Virus record (IMG/VR): IMGVR_UViG_3300006841_000093
Coordinates: 32,001-96,000 of that record
Source of the DNA: a virus
Strand: one strand, 5' to 3'
Length of the DNA stretch: 64,000 nt
The notes below the pieces were generated by a model, which saw only the letters and a list, made by a program, of their open reading frames with translations, did not search any database and was not told the origin of the DNA. Below, piece after piece: positions 264 to 32,134 of this stretch (positions are counted from its first letter, which is position 1; the number at the start of each line of letters is the position of its first letter). The translations under genes were made by a program, and so were the position numbers.

Positions 264-1397
264 ATGGAAGGTCTGTTAGAAAGCATTTTAACAGCGGTTG
301 CGGTGGTGATTAATGGTATACCTCAAGGGATTTTAGCACTATCTTTTGGGTTTGCCGCCTTTCCTACTGCAATAGCATTCGTTATTGGTATTATAGGATC
401 AATAGCATTTGCTTCAGTAGCAACTATTTCGTTTCAAGCAGAAACGATTACATTAGCCGGTACTTTAGGTAAAACTATGAAAGAGAGGTTATCTCTCATA
501 TTTTGGGGTGCCGCATTATTGTTGATTCCGTCATTGCTAGGAATGAACGAAGCACTTGTACAGTTTATCGGTCCGATTGTTGTCACATCGATGATGTGTG
601 GAGTTGGATTGATGCTTGCAAATGTGTCAATAGATTTGTTTAATTCAGAAAAATGGACAGGCATAGTCTCTATGGTTAGTGCCTTGGCTGTTTGGTTTTG
701 GACAAAAGATTTGGCATGGACAATTATTTCTTCTGTACTTATTTCTACTGCATTTTACGTTTTACTTAAACAAAATGCAATGTTACGAGAAACATTGGGA
801 GTAGAAATAGAAGAGATTGAAGTTGATAAGTCAAGAGAAAAATTCACTACAGGAAATATTGAGTGGAAGTTTTGGACAAATAAAAATATTGTTTTAGGCG
901 CATTATCTCTTGCGTGTCTAAACATTGGTGCAAATATCTCATTTGGTAAGATTACAGGATCTATTGCGGGTGCAAATACAAATATAGACCATTTAGCAAT
1001 TTATTCAAGTCTTGCAGACATGGGATCTGCATTCTTTGGTGGTGGGCCGGTTGAGGCAATCATCTCAGGAACTGCTGCAGCTCCAATGCCTATAGTTGCA
1101 TCTTGTATTATGATGGGAATTATGGCAGTCATACTTTTGACTAAATTACTTCCTGTTATTGGACAATATGTTCATCGTGCATCTATTGCGGGATTTCTTT
1201 TTGTCTTAGGAGTATTCGTTACTTTCATGACAAACATTAATGGTGCAATAGCTCAAGGTGGTGAATTTGCTGGCCCATACGGATTCGGTCCAATGGGAAT
1301 GGTAATTGGTGCAACCGCCTTTGTAACTATGAAGTGGAATCCTTTTTATGGATTAGTTGCAGGATTTGTTACTCAAATGATTTTTGTGGGAGCATAA
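264..1397 (+). CDS. NCS2-like nucleobase (xanthine/uracil/purine) permease
   Basis: 377 aa with many hydrophobic segments and an NCS2-like motif (SSLADMGSAFFGGGPVEAIIS); next to PRTases. Confidence 0.7.
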   Translation: MEGLLESILTAVAVVINGIPQGILALSFGFAAFPTAIAFVIGIIGSIAFASVATISFQAETITLAGTLGKTMKERLSLIFWGAALLLIPSLLGMNEALVQFIGPIVVTSMMCGVGLMLANVSIDLFNSEKWTGIVSMVSALAVWFWTKDLAWTIISSVLISTAFYVLLKQNAMLRETLGVEIEEIEVDKSREKFTTGNIEWKFWTNKNIVLGALSLACLNIGANISFGKITGSIAGANTNIDHLAIYSSLADMGSAFFGGGPVEAIISGTAAAPMPIVASCIMMGIMAVILLTKLLPVIGQYVHRASIAGFLFVLGVFVTFMTNINGAIAQGGEFAGPYGFGPMGMVIGATAFVTMKWNPFYGLVAGFVTQMIFVGA

Positions 1398-1952
1398 ATG
1401 GAAACGTATACTCTTAACGTAGCAGGTCTACAACGAGAGTTACCCAAAGTACAAATTAATGACGAGCTCGCAATAGCGAGCTTTGTCATGTTTGGTGACA
1501 CTCAGTTGATAGAATCTTGTGCAGAAGCAATTATTTTACATGCAGATTTTCCAAATCCTGTAAGTCAAATTGATATTTTGTGTTCGCCTGAAGCAAAATC
1601 AATTCCTTTAGTTCATGCTGTTGCGAGAAGATTAAATGTAGATTATGTGATTGCAAGAAAATCTGTTAAAGGATATATGTCTGAACCAATGGTTGAGAAA
1701 GTTCAATCTATCACGACAATAGGAGCTCAAACTCTTGTACTTGATAAGAGTGATGTTGAAAAATTAGAAGGTAAAAATATTTGTATAGTTGATGATGTTG
1801 TATCTACTGGTGGTTCAATTATTGGATTAGAAAATATGTTAAAAAAGATTGAATGTAATATAGTATGTAAAGCGGCGGTCTTATTGGAAGAGGCCGGTTA
1901 TGATAAAGATGATCTAGTGTATCTAGAAAAATTACCAATTTTTAAAGTATGA
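1398..1952 (+). CDS. Type I phosphoribosyltransferase (adenine/xanthine PRT-like)
   Basis: PRPP-binding motif CIVDDVVSTGGS, with PEAKSIP and ARK loops typical of Apt/Xpt. Confidence 0.85.
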   Translation: METYTLNVAGLQRELPKVQINDELAIASFVMFGDTQLIESCAEAIILHADFPNPVSQIDILCSPEAKSIPLVHAVARRLNVDYVIARKSVKGYMSEPMVEKVQSITTIGAQTLVLDKSDVEKLEGKNICIVDDVVSTGGSIIGLENMLKKIECNIVCKAAVLLEEAGYDKDDLVYLEKLPIFKV

Positions 1953-2345: not shown

Positions 2346-2422
2346 TGGCTGCGGGGGTAGGATTCGAACCTACAGATTTTCTGCCAACAACAGATCGCGT
2401 TTGCCGGTTTCGCCACCCCGCA
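2346..2422 (-). tRNA. Atypical tRNA-Asn(GTT)-like gene
   Basis: Minus strand folds as: acceptor TGCGGGG/CCCCGCA, G73, CCA; D-arm GCG..CGC; anticodon arm ATCTG-TTGTTGG-CAGAA; T-arm GTAGG-TTCGAAT-CCTAC. The loop is UU-GUU-GG rather than CU-GUU-AA. Confidence 0.6.
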
Positions 2423-2545
2423 GTAAGTTTTTCAGCTCTTTTCGTTTGTTCTTCTAATGTTAGTTTTCCTAATTCACGTGCTCCTCTATTTAATTCCTCA
2501 ATAACTTTATAAATATCGTTTGGCTCATAAATTGGAATAACTTTC

Positions 2546-3433
2546 TTACTCTTCATCATTTTTAAGAATCAAATTAGCACGTTTCATTGCACTAATCATT
2601 CTAGTTACACCGATTCCGCCCCCATATCTAGGTATAAAATCGTGTGATAAAAATTCATCGAGTTCAGCTTCTACTCTTTCTTTTCCGAATAGATTAAATA
2701 ACAAGTCTGCATAACCGCCTTCAGAGATAGTATAGAATTGTTTTCTCATTTCATCAACATCTGTACCACGTTCAGCACTACCGATAGTTTCCATGCCTCC
2801 CATGATAACATCACATTTATTAGCAAGCTTATGTTGTTTTTTTACATCCATTTCACCAAGTTTCATATTCCAAAAAGGACTTGTAGATTGGGGAAAATGT
2901 GTTAGAAAAAATACATCACCATATTCTTGATACATTTCTTCTTCATGGTGGGCTTCTAATTCTGAGCCAGTATATTTTGCTAATACACTCTGATAAAATC
3001 CGCCAGGAAAATCTTCAGTATACATATTTTTTTCAATTCCGGCTTTAAATCCAAGATGTTTACAAAGATCATTTTCCATTTGAAGAAGATCCTCAAAATC
3101 ACCAGGAGCTTCAAATTCAAACATAGGAAAAATTAATTCATGTCTCCCCTCTTTTGGATTTTGTTCTTGTCGATATGAAGTTGATAAACAATAACATCCA
3201 GCAAGTTCAGGTCTTGTCAGTAGTTCATATTCTAACCACATTTGACCAGTTTGAGGAAGTGGCCAGATTTGTCCTGAATATTCGTATGTAGCAACAGTAG
3301 TAGGATCTTCACATGCTGCTAAAATAGATAATCTGTTTTGGGTATGTACTTCTTGAAATCCTCTATCATCAAAAAAGGATCGTAGTTGGCGAGTTACTTC
3401 TGTGAAATCATAAGGTGATATAATTGAGCTCAT
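2546..3433 (-). CDS. Class II aaRS catalytic-domain-only paralog (Asp/Asn/Lys family; archaeal-type asparagine synthetase AsnRS2/AS-AR-like)
   Basis: 295 aa with motif 2 (SYRQEQNPKEGRHELIFPMFEFE), GMETIGSAER and motif 3 (RYGGGIGVTRM); no N-terminal OB-fold; strong RBS AAGGAG. Confidence 0.75.
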   Translation of the reverse strand: MSSIISPYDFTEVTRQLRSFFDDRGFQEVHTQNRLSILAACEDPTTVATYEYSGQIWPLPQTGQMWLEYELLTRPELAGCYCLSTSYRQEQNPKEGRHELIFPMFEFEAPGDFEDLLQMENDLCKHLGFKAGIEKNMYTEDFPGGFYQSVLAKYTGSELEAHHEEEMYQEYGDVFFLTHFPQSTSPFWNMKLGEMDVKKQHKLANKCDVIMGGMETIGSAERGTDVDEMRKQFYTISEGGYADLLFNLFGKERVEAELDEFLSHDFIPRYGGGIGVTRMISAMKRANLILKNDEE

Positions 3434-3486: not shown

Positions 3487-3494
3487 TATTTATA
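3487..3494 (-). promoter_or_regulatory. T4-type late promoter (TATAAATA) upstream of the aaRS paralog and tRNA unit
   Basis: TATTTATA on the + strand, about 55 nt upstream of the minus-strand ATG. Confidence 0.5.
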
Positions 3495-3563: not shown

Positions 3564-4529
3564 ATGCGATTAAAATCTAACAAAGTACCACACGGACAAG
3601 ATATATTGAACCCAGAATGGCCAGATGCTAAATGGGATGTTGGTGGACTGTTTGTACATGATGATAATATTTTTCAGCTTTTAGATAATATAAAGCAAAG
3701 ATATGATTGTGTATTACCAATTACTTCAGTATTTGGATGTTATAATGTGAGATGGCAGGGAGGTAGAACCGCCTGTACTTCACCTATTAGTAATTATAGT
3801 GGATGGACACCAGAAGATTTAATTAGACAATATAACGATAGAGGAATCGGAGTTACATTTACTTTTTCCAATACTTTAATCAAAGAAGAACATTTATCAG
3901 ATCCAAGTTGTAATTATTTGTTAGATATTTTAGCAACACAAGGATATGAAAATAATGCAGTTGCTATTACTTGTGATATTTTGTCAGATTACATTAGAAA
4001 TAAATGGCCACATGTAACACAAAAAGCATCGATTGTAAAACTAGCATCAGAAATGCCTAAGAGAAGAACATTTGAATATTACGAAAGTTTATTTGAAAAA
4101 TATGATAAAATATATTTACATCCAGATGATAATCTTAATCTTAGACTATGTGAAAAAATAGCAGAATCTGGAAAAGTTGATAAGTATGAACTTTTAGTGA
4201 ACGAAAAATGTACTATAAATTGTAGTATACGAAAAGAACATTATGATGAAACTTCTTCAGCAGTTATAGAAGGATGGCATGGAATGTTTAATTTTTCTAA
4301 TGTTGATTTTATTCATAATCCTAGTCACCCCAATAGTATATGTGAAAGGTGGACAAAATCAGACTTAAGATCGTGTGTGCTCTCTAAGGCCGAATTTAAA
4401 GAACTTTATGATATGGGATTTCGAAATTTTAAATTACAAGGAAGAGATGCACCGTGGGGATTTGTAAATTATAATATTTCAGATTGGTTAGTAGAACAAG
4501 ATACCATTGCACCAATGTTAAATTTTTAA
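3564..4529 (+). CDS. U32-like TIM-barrel protein with Cys cluster (putative Fe-S)
   Basis: ELLVNEKCTINCSIRKEHY...C...FKLQGR pattern; paralog of 52840..53676. Confidence 0.55.
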   Translation: MRLKSNKVPHGQDILNPEWPDAKWDVGGLFVHDDNIFQLLDNIKQRYDCVLPITSVFGCYNVRWQGGRTACTSPISNYSGWTPEDLIRQYNDRGIGVTFTFSNTLIKEEHLSDPSCNYLLDILATQGYENNAVAITCDILSDYIRNKWPHVTQKASIVKLASEMPKRRTFEYYESLFEKYDKIYLHPDDNLNLRLCEKIAESGKVDKYELLVNEKCTINCSIRKEHYDETSSAVIEGWHGMFNFSNVDFIHNPSHPNSICERWTKSDLRSCVLSKAEFKELYDMGFRNFKLQGRDAPWGFVNYNISDWLVEQDTIAPMLNF

Positions 4530-5841: not shown

Positions 5842-5926
5842 GGGGAGGCTGAGCACGTGGTGAGCCCAACGGACTGTAAATCCGCCGGATATTCCTGTGA
5901 AGGTTCGACTCCTTCTCTCCCCACCA
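5842..5926 (+). tRNA. tRNA-Tyr(GTA)
   Basis: GGGGAGG/TCTCCCC acceptor stem, CT-GTA-AA loop, long variable arm, GAAGG-TTCGACT-CCTTC T-arm, A73, encoded CCA. Confidence 0.92.
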
Positions 5927-31083: not shown

Positions 31084-32134
31084 TTATTTAGATAATTTAG
31101 TAAAAGTGACAGGTAATGAATTCGCAACAAAAGTTTCAGATGGGGTTGAAGCTGGTGATGTTACTGGTCATGTAGATACAGGAAGTTATATTTTAAATGC
31201 ATTAGTTTCAGGAGACATTTATGGAGGAATCCCATCAAACAAAATTACAGCTCTGGCAGGAGAAACTGCAACGGGTAAAACATTTTTCGCTCTTGGTATG
31301 GTCAAACAGTTTCTTTCAGATAATCCTAGCGGCGGCGTTTTGTATTTTGAGTCTGAGTCTGCACTCACTAAAGACATGATTGAGAGTAGGGGAATCGATT
31401 CAAAACGAATGATAATTCTCCCCGTAACTACTATACAAGAATTTACTCACCAAGCAGTTAAAATAGTAGAAAATCATACAGAAGATAAACCGATAATGAT
31501 GTGTCTCGATTCACTTGGAATGTTATCAACAACAAAAGAAGTTGGTGATATTACAGAAGGTAAGGAGACTAAAGATATGACACGGGCACAACTTGTTAAA
31601 GGGTGTTTCAGGGTCTTGACATTGAAATTAGGTAAAGCAGGAATTCCATTATTAGTAACCAATCATACATACAAACAAGTTGGAACTATGTTTCCACAAG
31701 ATGTGATGGGTGGTGGTAGTGGACTACAGTATGCAGCATCTACAATTATTTTCCTTTCCAAGAGAAAAGAAAAAGAGGGCACAGATGTTGTTGGTAATGT
31801 AATACATTGTAAGAATTTTAAATCTAGATTAACGAAAGAAAATAAAAAGGTAGATGTTCTCTTGAGGTATGATCAAGGTTTGAATAGATATTATGGGTTA
31901 CTTGAATTAGCAGAAGAAGCGGGGATTTTTAAAAAGGTTTCTACAAGATATGAGATGCCGGATGGTGGTAAAATTTTTGGAAAGGCAATACTGAATGAGC
32001 CTGAAAAATATTTTACAAAGGAAATTCTTGATAAATTAAATGATTATGCAAAAACAGTATTTCTCTATGGTGGAAAAAGTGAAGAAAGAAACGAAACTGA
32101 GGATGAGACAGTCCCAGTCAACGAAACCAACTAA
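31076..32134 (+). CDS. uvsX: RecA-like recombinase UvsX
   Basis: [22 protein letters not shown] and MGGGSG. Confidence 0.95.

Follow-up and report, generated by a model that had tools for sequence, protein, structure and literature searches.

Catalytic cores of class IIb aminoacyl-tRNA synthetases are found in several enzymes that have no anticodon-binding domain. Archaeal asparagine synthetase A (AS-AR, also called 'AsnRS2'; PDB 3P8T and 1NNH) consists of such a core (about 294 aa) and shows that it can act on free amino acids without tRNA. This paralog is reported from genomes that have AsnRS and lack both AsnA and AsnB. EpmA/GenX (PoxA), a paralog of the LysRS core that acylates elongation factor P (EF-P), is likewise without an anticodon domain. 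A possible analogy is offered by cyclodipeptide synthases, FemXAB proteins with non-proteinogenic tRNA-Gly, and glutamyl-tRNA reductase, for which charged tRNA is diverted from the ribosome to metabolism; in staphylococci this use is served by special tRNA isoacceptors that are poor substrates for translation. The stretch analyzed here, referred to as the window, is 64,000 nucleotides of the virus record IMGVR_UViG_3300006841_000093 (positions 32,001 to 96,000). It contains a minus-strand cassette in which the gene for a core-only enzyme of the AsnRS/AspRS type is followed by a tRNA gene with the anticodon GUU. This enzyme-tRNA pair is almost certainly real and conserved, and the enzyme, which occurs without the tRNA in bacteria and in other viruses, is probably tied functionally to the pyrimidine pathway.

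The cloverleaf that the initial annotation placed about 120 nt downstream of the enzyme was identified as a tRNA-Asn(GTT) by ARAGORN, matched the Rfam tRNA model, and lies 123 nt 3' of the stop codon of the enzyme gene. A pattern search of IMG/VR confirmed at least 594 relatives of the enzyme (594 of the 599 pattern-matching stretches among the matches listed), and in a metagenome protein database 8000 of the 8000 candidate clusters scored passed E 0.001. The downstream tRNA was first examined with ARAGORN in the best 80 loci, and most of these had a co-oriented tRNA-Asn(GTT) just 3' of the enzyme gene. A covariance model built from homologous tRNAs (model R1) recovered the tRNA in 16 further loci, which ARAGORN had missed because the variable arm was very long. 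The tRNA was directly downstream of the enzyme in approximately 72 of 85 phage loci. The pair occurs in hundreds of marine phages. Among them are the Prochlorococcus phages P-SSM2, P-SSM5, and P-SSM7, whose 'tRNA ligase' (T4-GC 194) is 54-56% identical to the window enzyme, and in each of these three phages a GUU tRNA of 85-88 nt was found within about 10 nt after the enzyme gene. No such tRNA was found within 3 kb of the enzyme in 12 phage loci, including two megaphages, when R1 was searched with filters off; the two megaphages carry ordinary tRNA-Asn genes elsewhere.

The linkage was also examined in the reverse direction, by searching IMG/VR with a pattern specific to the tRNA. A narrower first pattern gave 16 matches and was then widened. 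The enzyme was encoded directly upstream on the same strand in 78 of the 87 tRNA matches with room for it (about 90%), and four of the nine matches without an upstream enzyme were chance matches. The neighborhoods in which the cassette was found differed between phage genomes. Co-occurrence in related phages, which had been proposed as a check, was thus observed in both directions.

Analysis of the tRNA showed that it is a genuine cloverleaf with more pairing than expected by chance. The window tRNA scored 51.3 bits against the Rfam tRNA model (gathering score 29) and 81.7 bits against R1, which was built from an alignment (A1) of 38 distinct homologous tRNAs. In these 38 sequences, 99.3% of cells in the cloverleaf pair, and compensatory changes were found in 16 of 20 pairs; none of 500 shuffles matched this pairing and covariation, and slid controls paired in 38-55% of cells. 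The initial annotation had described a U1-A72 pair, G73, CCA, an odd UUGUUGG anticodon loop (with G at position 37), and an A27/A43 mismatch. Every one of these details was confirmed, the CCA being encoded and the mismatch being flagged by Infernal. The D-arm, described as similar to those of tRNA-Leu and tRNA-Ser, has 3 bp and is of the tRNA-Leu type. In a later set of 52 distinct sequences the whole body was of the class II tRNA-Leu type, with a 3-bp D-stem and the D-loop architecture of tRNA-Leu, and the variable region ranged from 6 nt in the window up to 39 nt. Genuine tRNA-Leu(UAA) genes of the same phages scored 58-68 bits against R1, a model built only from GUU tRNAs. Identity as a tRNA-Leu was considered and rejected: the tRNA has G73 and GUU, not A73 and a Leu anticodon, and only its body resembles tRNA-Leu. 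One homologous tRNA(GUU), at 3940-4036 in locus L038, has an extra hairpin of about 19 nt in the D-loop; ARAGORN misses tRNAs of this kind as well as those with long arms.

The bases that do not vary in this family are informative. G34-U35-U36, G73, and the elbow bases were invariant across the 52 distinct tRNAs, and CCA was encoded in all but a few. U1-A72 was invariant in the 38 distinct tRNAs, and in the set of 52 it was replaced by A1-U72 in a small clade (L113-L118). In bacteria the anticodon and G73 are sufficient for Asn identity, and U1-A72 is the determinant for GatCAB; for E. coli tRNA-Ser, the antideterminants listed against LeuRS include G73 (PMC9976931). The earlier view of U1-A72 and G73 as traits of bacterial tRNA-Asn agrees with this identity set and with the GatCAB determinant. 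The conserved bases are exactly those read by the host AsnRS, or by an AspRS that is non-discriminating (ND-AspRS) and GatCAB, and because of this correspondence host enzymes could service the tRNA.

Positions that matter for decoding were not conserved in the same way. Among the 52 distinct tRNAs, position 33 was U, C, or A, and position 37 was U in 37, G in 11, and A in 4. U33, a purine at position 37, and the site for N6-threonylcarbamoyladenosine (t6A) are not kept, and the phage tRNA therefore looks unfit for normal decoding. Of the features of a canonical tRNA-Asn, GUU, G73, and U1-A72 were present in the 38 distinct sequences, and the U33, A37, class I body with its short variable loop, and 4-bp D-stem of a canonical elongator tRNA-Asn were not the rule in the 52. 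The loss of decoding features fits an earlier suggestion that the tRNA is used outside the ribosome, although an extraribosomal transfer of the acyl group is something that we infer.

The enzyme matched a single Pfam family, tRNA-synt_2 (PF00152, E 1.3e-19), with residues 11-287 aligned to profile positions 26-296. Because this match begins at residue 11, there is no room for an N-terminal oligonucleotide-binding (OB) fold, and the earlier description of a 295-aa class IIb core lacking this domain was correct. No longer homologs with an OB anticodon domain were found in a fusion survey of protein clusters. One homolog of 614 aa (P0280) joins the core to a PF22945 domain. The enzyme belongs to PHROG 29758 ('unknown function', E 2.7e-102). 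An AlphaFold2 model based on 51 diverse homologs was confident (pLDDT 94.3), and a Foldseek search with this predicted structure placed the catalytic domains of AspRS and AsnRS about equally close (E ~1e-18), with archaeal 3REX at rank 47. In a profile search of PDB chains AsnRS was the best match (E 7e-16), then archaeal AspRS, AS-AR (3p8t, E 3e-7, behind approximately 20 AsnRS and AspRS chains), and EpmA (E 6e-6). No curated NCBIfam cut-off was reached: the score was 33.8 bits for asnS (TIGR00457), which has a cut-off of 342.6, and 20 bits for the EpmA/GenX models TIGR00462 and NF006828, which have cut-offs of 287 and 264. Neither the models for asparagine synthetase A (NF005052 and NF005054) nor Pfam AsnA (PF03590) gave a match at E ≤ 0.01, and PF03590 was absent from all five of the carrier genomes searched. 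Membership in the archaeal AS-AR group, which the initial annotation had raised, is thus not supported by sequence.

Alignments with AsnRS chains from PDB and the family consensus showed that class II motifs 2 (S-Y-R-x-E...G-R-H) and 3 (G-G-G-I-G-x-T-R) are present. The pocket is of the AsnRS type, with Q-T-G-Q-M-W-L-E providing the Q-x-x-Q element, the arginine of S-A-E-R that of the G-S-x-R element, the motif-2 and motif-3 arginines, and a Leu in place of the aspartate-binding Lys of AspRS. We take the functional roles of these residues to be those assigned from AspRS and AsnRS structures. Two near-invariant motifs, TSPFWNMK and ETIGSAERS, are specific to the family. The enzymes therefore appear to form a tight family derived from the AsnRS/AspRS catalytic core, with a predicted ATP and amino-acid site that is complete and of the AsnRS type. 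Pocket and catalytic motifs were at least 90% identical across the groups linked to the tRNA, those linked to dihydroorotate dehydrogenase (DHODH), those from the candidate phyla radiation (CPR), and viral groups without the tRNA, and the same chemistry is therefore expected in all of these contexts.

The enzyme is not confined to phages. A prokaryote scan of one genome per species, queried with the single window protein, found 254 relatives with 52-62% identity, including some on complete chromosomes. The carriers were Patescibacteria (Saccharibacteria, Paceibacteria, Kaiserbacteria, and others), Chitinophagales/Aureispira, Weeksellaceae, and metagenome-assembled genomes (MAGs) labeled Bdellovibrionales and Alphaproteobacteria. 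No GUU tRNA was found beside the prokaryote enzyme, except for phage cassettes inside MAGs at L124, L125, and L153, and the enzyme was also found without the tRNA on other viral contigs. Since bacteria have the enzyme without the tRNA, while 78 of 87 tRNAs have the enzyme upstream, the tRNA depends on the enzyme and not the enzyme on the tRNA. The dedicated enzyme-tRNA pair of the initial annotation thus stands as a conserved, co-oriented unit; the same enzyme without the tRNA in bacteria and other viruses, and host enzymes that could service the tRNA, leave the dedication unsupported. In a maximum-likelihood tree all family members grouped tightly in a single clade, which a very long branch separated from the outgroup cores of AspRS and LysRS. 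Patescibacteria were basal, the tRNA-linked phage enzymes fell into one large and one small clade, and the DHODH-linked and Bacteroidota enzymes were in a sister group.

GatB was found in all five of the cellular carrier genomes tested. The CPR carriers had GatCAB and no canonical AsnRS, as in the Patescibacteria genomes G001, G003, and G005, and the Chitinophagales genome G002 had its own AsnRS and AsnB. Neither case shows the AsnRS-positive, AsnA- and AsnB-negative pattern of AS-AR genomes. In G001, G003, and G005 (L204, L209, L210) AspRS is 465-475 aa long and matched the bacterial aspS model in two pieces; these AspRS proteins appear to be without the bacterial insertion domain. In 17 Patescibacteria loci (L126, L129, L133 ... 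L200), a Dus-family flavoenzyme (PF01207, E 6e-55) was encoded in the same orientation directly 5' of the enzyme, with SerRS further upstream. Dus, like DHODH, acts on the C5-C6 bond of the uracil ring.

Fusions and gene order link the enzyme to pyrimidine synthesis. The core was fused to DHODH (DHO_dh, PF01180) in nine protein clusters (584-661 aa, from several sources and contigs) and to orotidine 5'-monophosphate (OMP) decarboxylase in one cluster (P0135), for which no close relative was found among viral contigs. In Bacteroidota, pyrD is directly 5' of the enzyme gene, and a pyrF-pyrE fusion is divergent from the two. On viral contigs the order was pyrE-pyrF-enzyme with a divergent pyrD (L107 and L122) or enzyme-pyrE-pyrF (L112). 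In T4-like phages of the window clade, a cassette of enzyme, micro-open reading frame (micro-ORF), and tRNA is convergent with an operon of pyrF and a short phosphoribosyltransferase (PRTase) gene. In 12 phage loci the cassette was flanked by a homolog of the short PRTase, which in 5 of the 12 was adjacent to and co-oriented with the OMP decarboxylase. In related phages the PRTase gene directly precedes that of the OMP decarboxylase. The 129-aa PRTase of the window had no sequence match in Pfam, PHROG, or PDB and is a candidate orotate PRTase, a specificity suggested by gene order alone. Outside the window, the same phage genome (G000) encodes at 109723-110337 an OMP decarboxylase homolog that is 43% identical to the one flanking the cassette in related phages. 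A DHODH was not detected in this genome.

The distribution of the preceding enzymes of the pathway, aspartate carbamoyltransferase (PyrB) and dihydroorotase (PyrC), was opposite to that of the window enzyme. PyrB exceeded its cut-off in 0 of 21 enzyme-positive genomes versus 29 of 32 enzyme-negative relatives. In the order Chitinophagales, to which G002 belongs, neither PyrB nor PyrC exceeded its cut-off in any of the 11 enzyme-positive genomes, both were present in all 9 enzyme-negative genomes, and DHODH was present in 20 of the 20. In G002, the sole transcarbamylase is an N-acetylornithine carbamoyltransferase and the gene that resembles PyrC encodes a dihydropyrimidinase. Among 25 sampled Weeksellaceae genomes, PyrB was found in 0 of 2 enzyme-positive and 20 of 23 enzyme-negative genomes. 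PyrB was also missing in five more enzyme-positive genomes (three Weeksellaceae, one labeled Bdellovibrionales, and one labeled Alphaproteobacteria) and in four Patescibacteria. The anticorrelation with PyrB recurs in two or more families of Bacteroidota and is consistent with what fusions and gene order show.

The reading that we favor, tentatively and at somewhat less than an even chance, is that the enzyme is an Asn- or Asp-activating ligase that would feed dihydroorotate synthesis, with the phage tRNA as a substrate carrier that the host can charge. The cassette may be a tRNA-linked route to nucleotides rather than a spare synthetase. Starting from asparagine or aspartate, the enzyme would supply dihydroorotate, or an equivalent substrate of PyrD, through an amide formation or ring closure that depends on ATP and bypasses PyrB and PyrC. 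Because its AsnRS-like site keeps the glutamines that bind the alpha-amino group, the enzyme probably uses Asn or Asp instead of a pre-formed ureide. Asparagine already holds the N3-C4 amide of dihydroorotate, so that insertion of one carbonyl with ATP would close the ring. In the phage, the product would enter uridine monophosphate (UMP) synthesis through host PyrD, the phage short PRTase, and the phage OMP decarboxylase. The tRNA(GUU), charged by the host, would deliver Asn (or Asp) to the enzyme. A role as dedicated carrier would best explain the tRNA, because it is host-chargeable, a poor decoder, and almost never found without the enzyme, and it would be most plausible in hosts whose only asparagine synthesis takes place on tRNA; taken by itself this role is rather doubtful. 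The most specific form of the proposal, in which Asn-tRNA(Asn) from ND-AspRS/GatCAB or AsnRS would react with CO2 and ATP to give dihydroorotate independently of PyrB and PyrC, with the non-decoding phage tRNA-Asn as dedicated carrier, we think unlikely.

Several observations weigh against the favored reading. A tRNA carrier would not be needed in G002, because AsnRS and AsnB are both present there. For the ring formation proposed here, we know of no precedent among enzymes with the class II fold. The 21 enzyme-positive genomes fall in few clades, and many are MAGs, so that the anticorrelation with PyrB and PyrC does not amount to 21 independent events. Within the family, acidity is highest in the tRNA-linked enzymes (median net charge -19), and the net-charge comparison, which is weak evidence, gave no sign of an added RNA-binding surface in them. 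Among the Patescibacteria carriers, 11 of 16 had no detectable DHODH and 9 of 16 had no OMP decarboxylase, including a complete 716-kb chromosome; these gaps imply that the product is useful outside the UMP pathway or that analogous enzymes are used.

The close linkage might instead reflect a private synthetase-tRNA pair, in which the core-only enzyme charges the adjacent tRNA with Asn through the acceptor end alone (U1-A72, G73), and the tRNA decodes AAY codons in phage late proteins independently of the host supply of Asn-tRNA or of defenses that attack tRNA-Asn. The two genes are tightly linked in the same orientation, are probably transcribed together, and stay linked at enzyme identities as low as about 54%; the acceptor-end bases that never vary are located where a class IIb core would contact tRNA, the G-R-H of the motif-2 loop is retained, and the pocket is AsnRS-like. 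Enzyme-positive CPR genomes without a canonical AsnRS would also fit, as would a phage genome that carries only two tRNAs, tRNA-Asn(GUU) and tRNA-Tyr, and in which Asn accounts for 5.3% of codons. Such a pair is nevertheless improbable. Near-identical enzymes are found without the tRNA and fused to DHODH, a pyrimidine or G at position 37 and a base other than U at position 33 decode poorly, the GUU anticodon is invariant though the enzyme has nothing to read it, and the enzyme is strongly acidic. We also know of no class IIb enzyme that charges tRNA without an anticodon domain.

If the two genes are linked because both raise the supply of Asn-tRNA, the enzyme would be an ammonia-dependent asparagine synthetase, analogous to AS-AR or AsnA, and the tRNA an extra tRNA-Asn charged by the host. 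The architecture (about 295 aa, a class IIb core with no OB fold) is like that of AS-AR, AS-AR structures were detectable both by profile (3p8t) and by Foldseek (3rex), and the tRNA bears the full host identity set. We give this explanation a low probability. The asparagine synthetase models were not matched, the family is kept in CPR genomes with GatCAB and no AsnRS, where free Asn cannot enter translation, and G002 already has AsnB; moreover, the DHODH fusions, pyr clustering, PyrB/PyrC anticorrelation, and aberrant anticodon loop are left unexplained. The tRNA might also have no functional link to the enzyme and travel with a mobile cassette as a decoy or stand-in for a host tRNA-Asn that an anticodon nuclease attacks, as a recombination or landing site, or as an element for processing the 3' end of the mRNA. 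Phage tRNAs with altered anticodon loops are described as evading anticodon nucleases (PMC10264068), non-syntenic regions of cyanomyophage genomes are marked by tRNA genes (PMC3037559), and the cassette is found in varied genomic neighborhoods. A hitch-hiker would be expected to be found alone often, however, and the enzyme was upstream of the great majority of the tRNAs; the arrangement also persists over deep divergence of the enzyme and in two separate enzyme clades, which makes an unlinked tRNA very improbable.

The source virus record is 134.5 kb long and was rated complete by CheckV. Its DNA polymerase is approximately 51% identical to cyanomyophage polymerases, and the virus is a divergent marine T4-like phage. 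The features of the cassette are listed in Table 1. The enzyme gene is the sole minus-strand ORF of at least 250 aa in the window, which bears out the initial impression that it is the only convincing unit on that strand, and the promoter proposed ahead of it corresponds to a motif that is indeed present, with a putative promoter function.

Table 1. Coordinates of the cassette features and of the gene convergent with them in the window.
Feature	Position	Strand	Remarks
Enzyme gene	2546-3433	-	295-aa class IIb aminoacyl-tRNA synthetase catalytic core without anticodon-binding domain
Promoter-like motif TATAAATA, resembling T4 late promoter	3487-3494	-	54 nt 5' of enzyme ATG; read from sequence; putative
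Micro-ORF	2422-2559	-	Start overlaps last codons of enzyme gene; core conserved in relatives
tRNA(GUU), 77 nt, encoded CCA, 5-nt variable loop	2346-2422	-	ARAGORN, Rfam, own covariance model, and covariation
Short phosphoribosyltransferase-like gene, 129 aa	1949-2338	+	Convergent with cassette; phosphoribosyl pyrophosphate (PRPP)-loop motif in translation

Homologs of the micro-ORF were found between the enzyme and the tRNA in approximately 45 phage loci (alignment A4). They share the core K-x-IP-[IV]-Y-x-x-G-x-GI-[HY]-x-x-[IL]-x-x-L-x-[RK]-[QG]-A-x-EL, which can also be written IP-[IV]-Y-K-N-G-x-G-I-H...E-L-Q-R-Q-A-R-E-L, and relatives often add a C2H2 zinc-finger module (C-x2-C...H-x3-H). 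In the window the frame continues across the tRNA and ends at 2314, whereas relatives terminate at a UGA made by tRNA positions 8-10. A complex prediction for the enzyme (alignment A2) and the micro-ORF product (A4) scored 0.00 with an uncertain fold of the partner, a score that speaks neither for nor against an interaction.

Other genes near the cassette were also noted. In the window, a permease-like ORF (264-1397, plus strand) and an adenine-PRTase-like gene (1398-1952, plus strand; PDB 5ZGO, E 3e-38) are packed together in a run for nucleobase salvage, convergent with the cassette. The second tRNA of the phage, a tRNA-Tyr(GUA) at 5842-5926 on the plus strand, reached only 35.6 bits in Rfam, where its D-stem and anticodon stem were flagged for mismatches. 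NAY codons are read by both of the phage tRNAs, and in this phage the U-ending NAY codons are strongly favored (AAT 4.26% versus AAC 1.0%, TAT 3.36% versus TAC 0.75%). In eight phage loci (L054, L056, L057, L059-L061, L067, and L068) a carbamoyltransferase of the NodU/CmcH type (PF02543 and PF16861) is encoded about 2 kb 3' of the enzyme, and it could matter for a ureido-forming pathway. In one phage lineage (L084/L085, 993-1375) a permuted transfer-messenger RNA (tmRNA; tag AVNEDFALAA, ARAGORN) was found upstream of the enzyme, adjoining genes for tRNA-Ala, tRNA-Glu, and tRNA-Asp.

The family is very abundant, and cultured Prochlorococcus phages are among its carriers; even so, 'tRNA ligase' is its only annotation, and in the literature the gene appears under that name (T4-GC 194) as a table entry (Sullivan et al. 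2010, PMC3037559). No paper on the enzyme-tRNA pair or on an alternative route to dihydroorotate was found in the searchable literature. If PyrB and PyrC are indeed replaced, the family would represent an unrecognized alternative to textbook pyrimidine biosynthesis that operates in Bacteroidota, in bacteria of candidate phyla, and in viruses of the ocean, and it would be an error of metabolic reconstructions to list such organisms as pyrimidine auxotrophs. Should the tRNA serve as a metabolic carrier, the cassette would add a new kind to the uses of tRNA outside the ribosome and would be a compact enzyme-tRNA pair of natural origin, and delivery of Asn by tRNA for dihydroorotate synthesis would be the first tRNA-dependent step in nucleotide biosynthesis. 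Even the conservative outcomes, a private AsnRS or an asparagine synthetase, would explain one of the commonest unexplained auxiliary cassettes in marine myoviruses.

Among known systems, the best matches of the enzyme in both sequence and fold are the class IIb catalytic domains of AsnRS (PDB 2XGT/2XTI, 8TC8/8H53, 1X54, and 9SH8), with which it shares motifs 2 and 3, the Q-x-x-Q element, a Leu where AspRS has its lysine, and R-H in the loop of motif 2. Unlike AsnRS, it has no OB domain, falls far below the asnS cut-off, has motifs of its own, and is found in the context of pyrimidine genes. AS-AR has the same core-only architecture and belongs to the same superfamily, but it is only a distant relative by profile and by Foldseek rank, and we know of no link of AS-AR to a tRNA gene or to pyr genes. 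Of the enzymes that divert charged tRNA to metabolism, none to our knowledge uses a class IIb core or tRNA-Asn, or feeds pyrimidine synthesis. The phage tRNA keeps GUU, G73, and U1-A72, the determinants of the ND-AspRS/GatCAB pathway (PMC9976931), and the enzyme is unrelated to GatCAB. EpmA/GenX, which is derived from LysRS and whose models the enzyme does not approach, moves an activated amino acid to a tRNA-shaped acceptor; the acceptor of the window enzyme would be a real tRNA or a small molecule.

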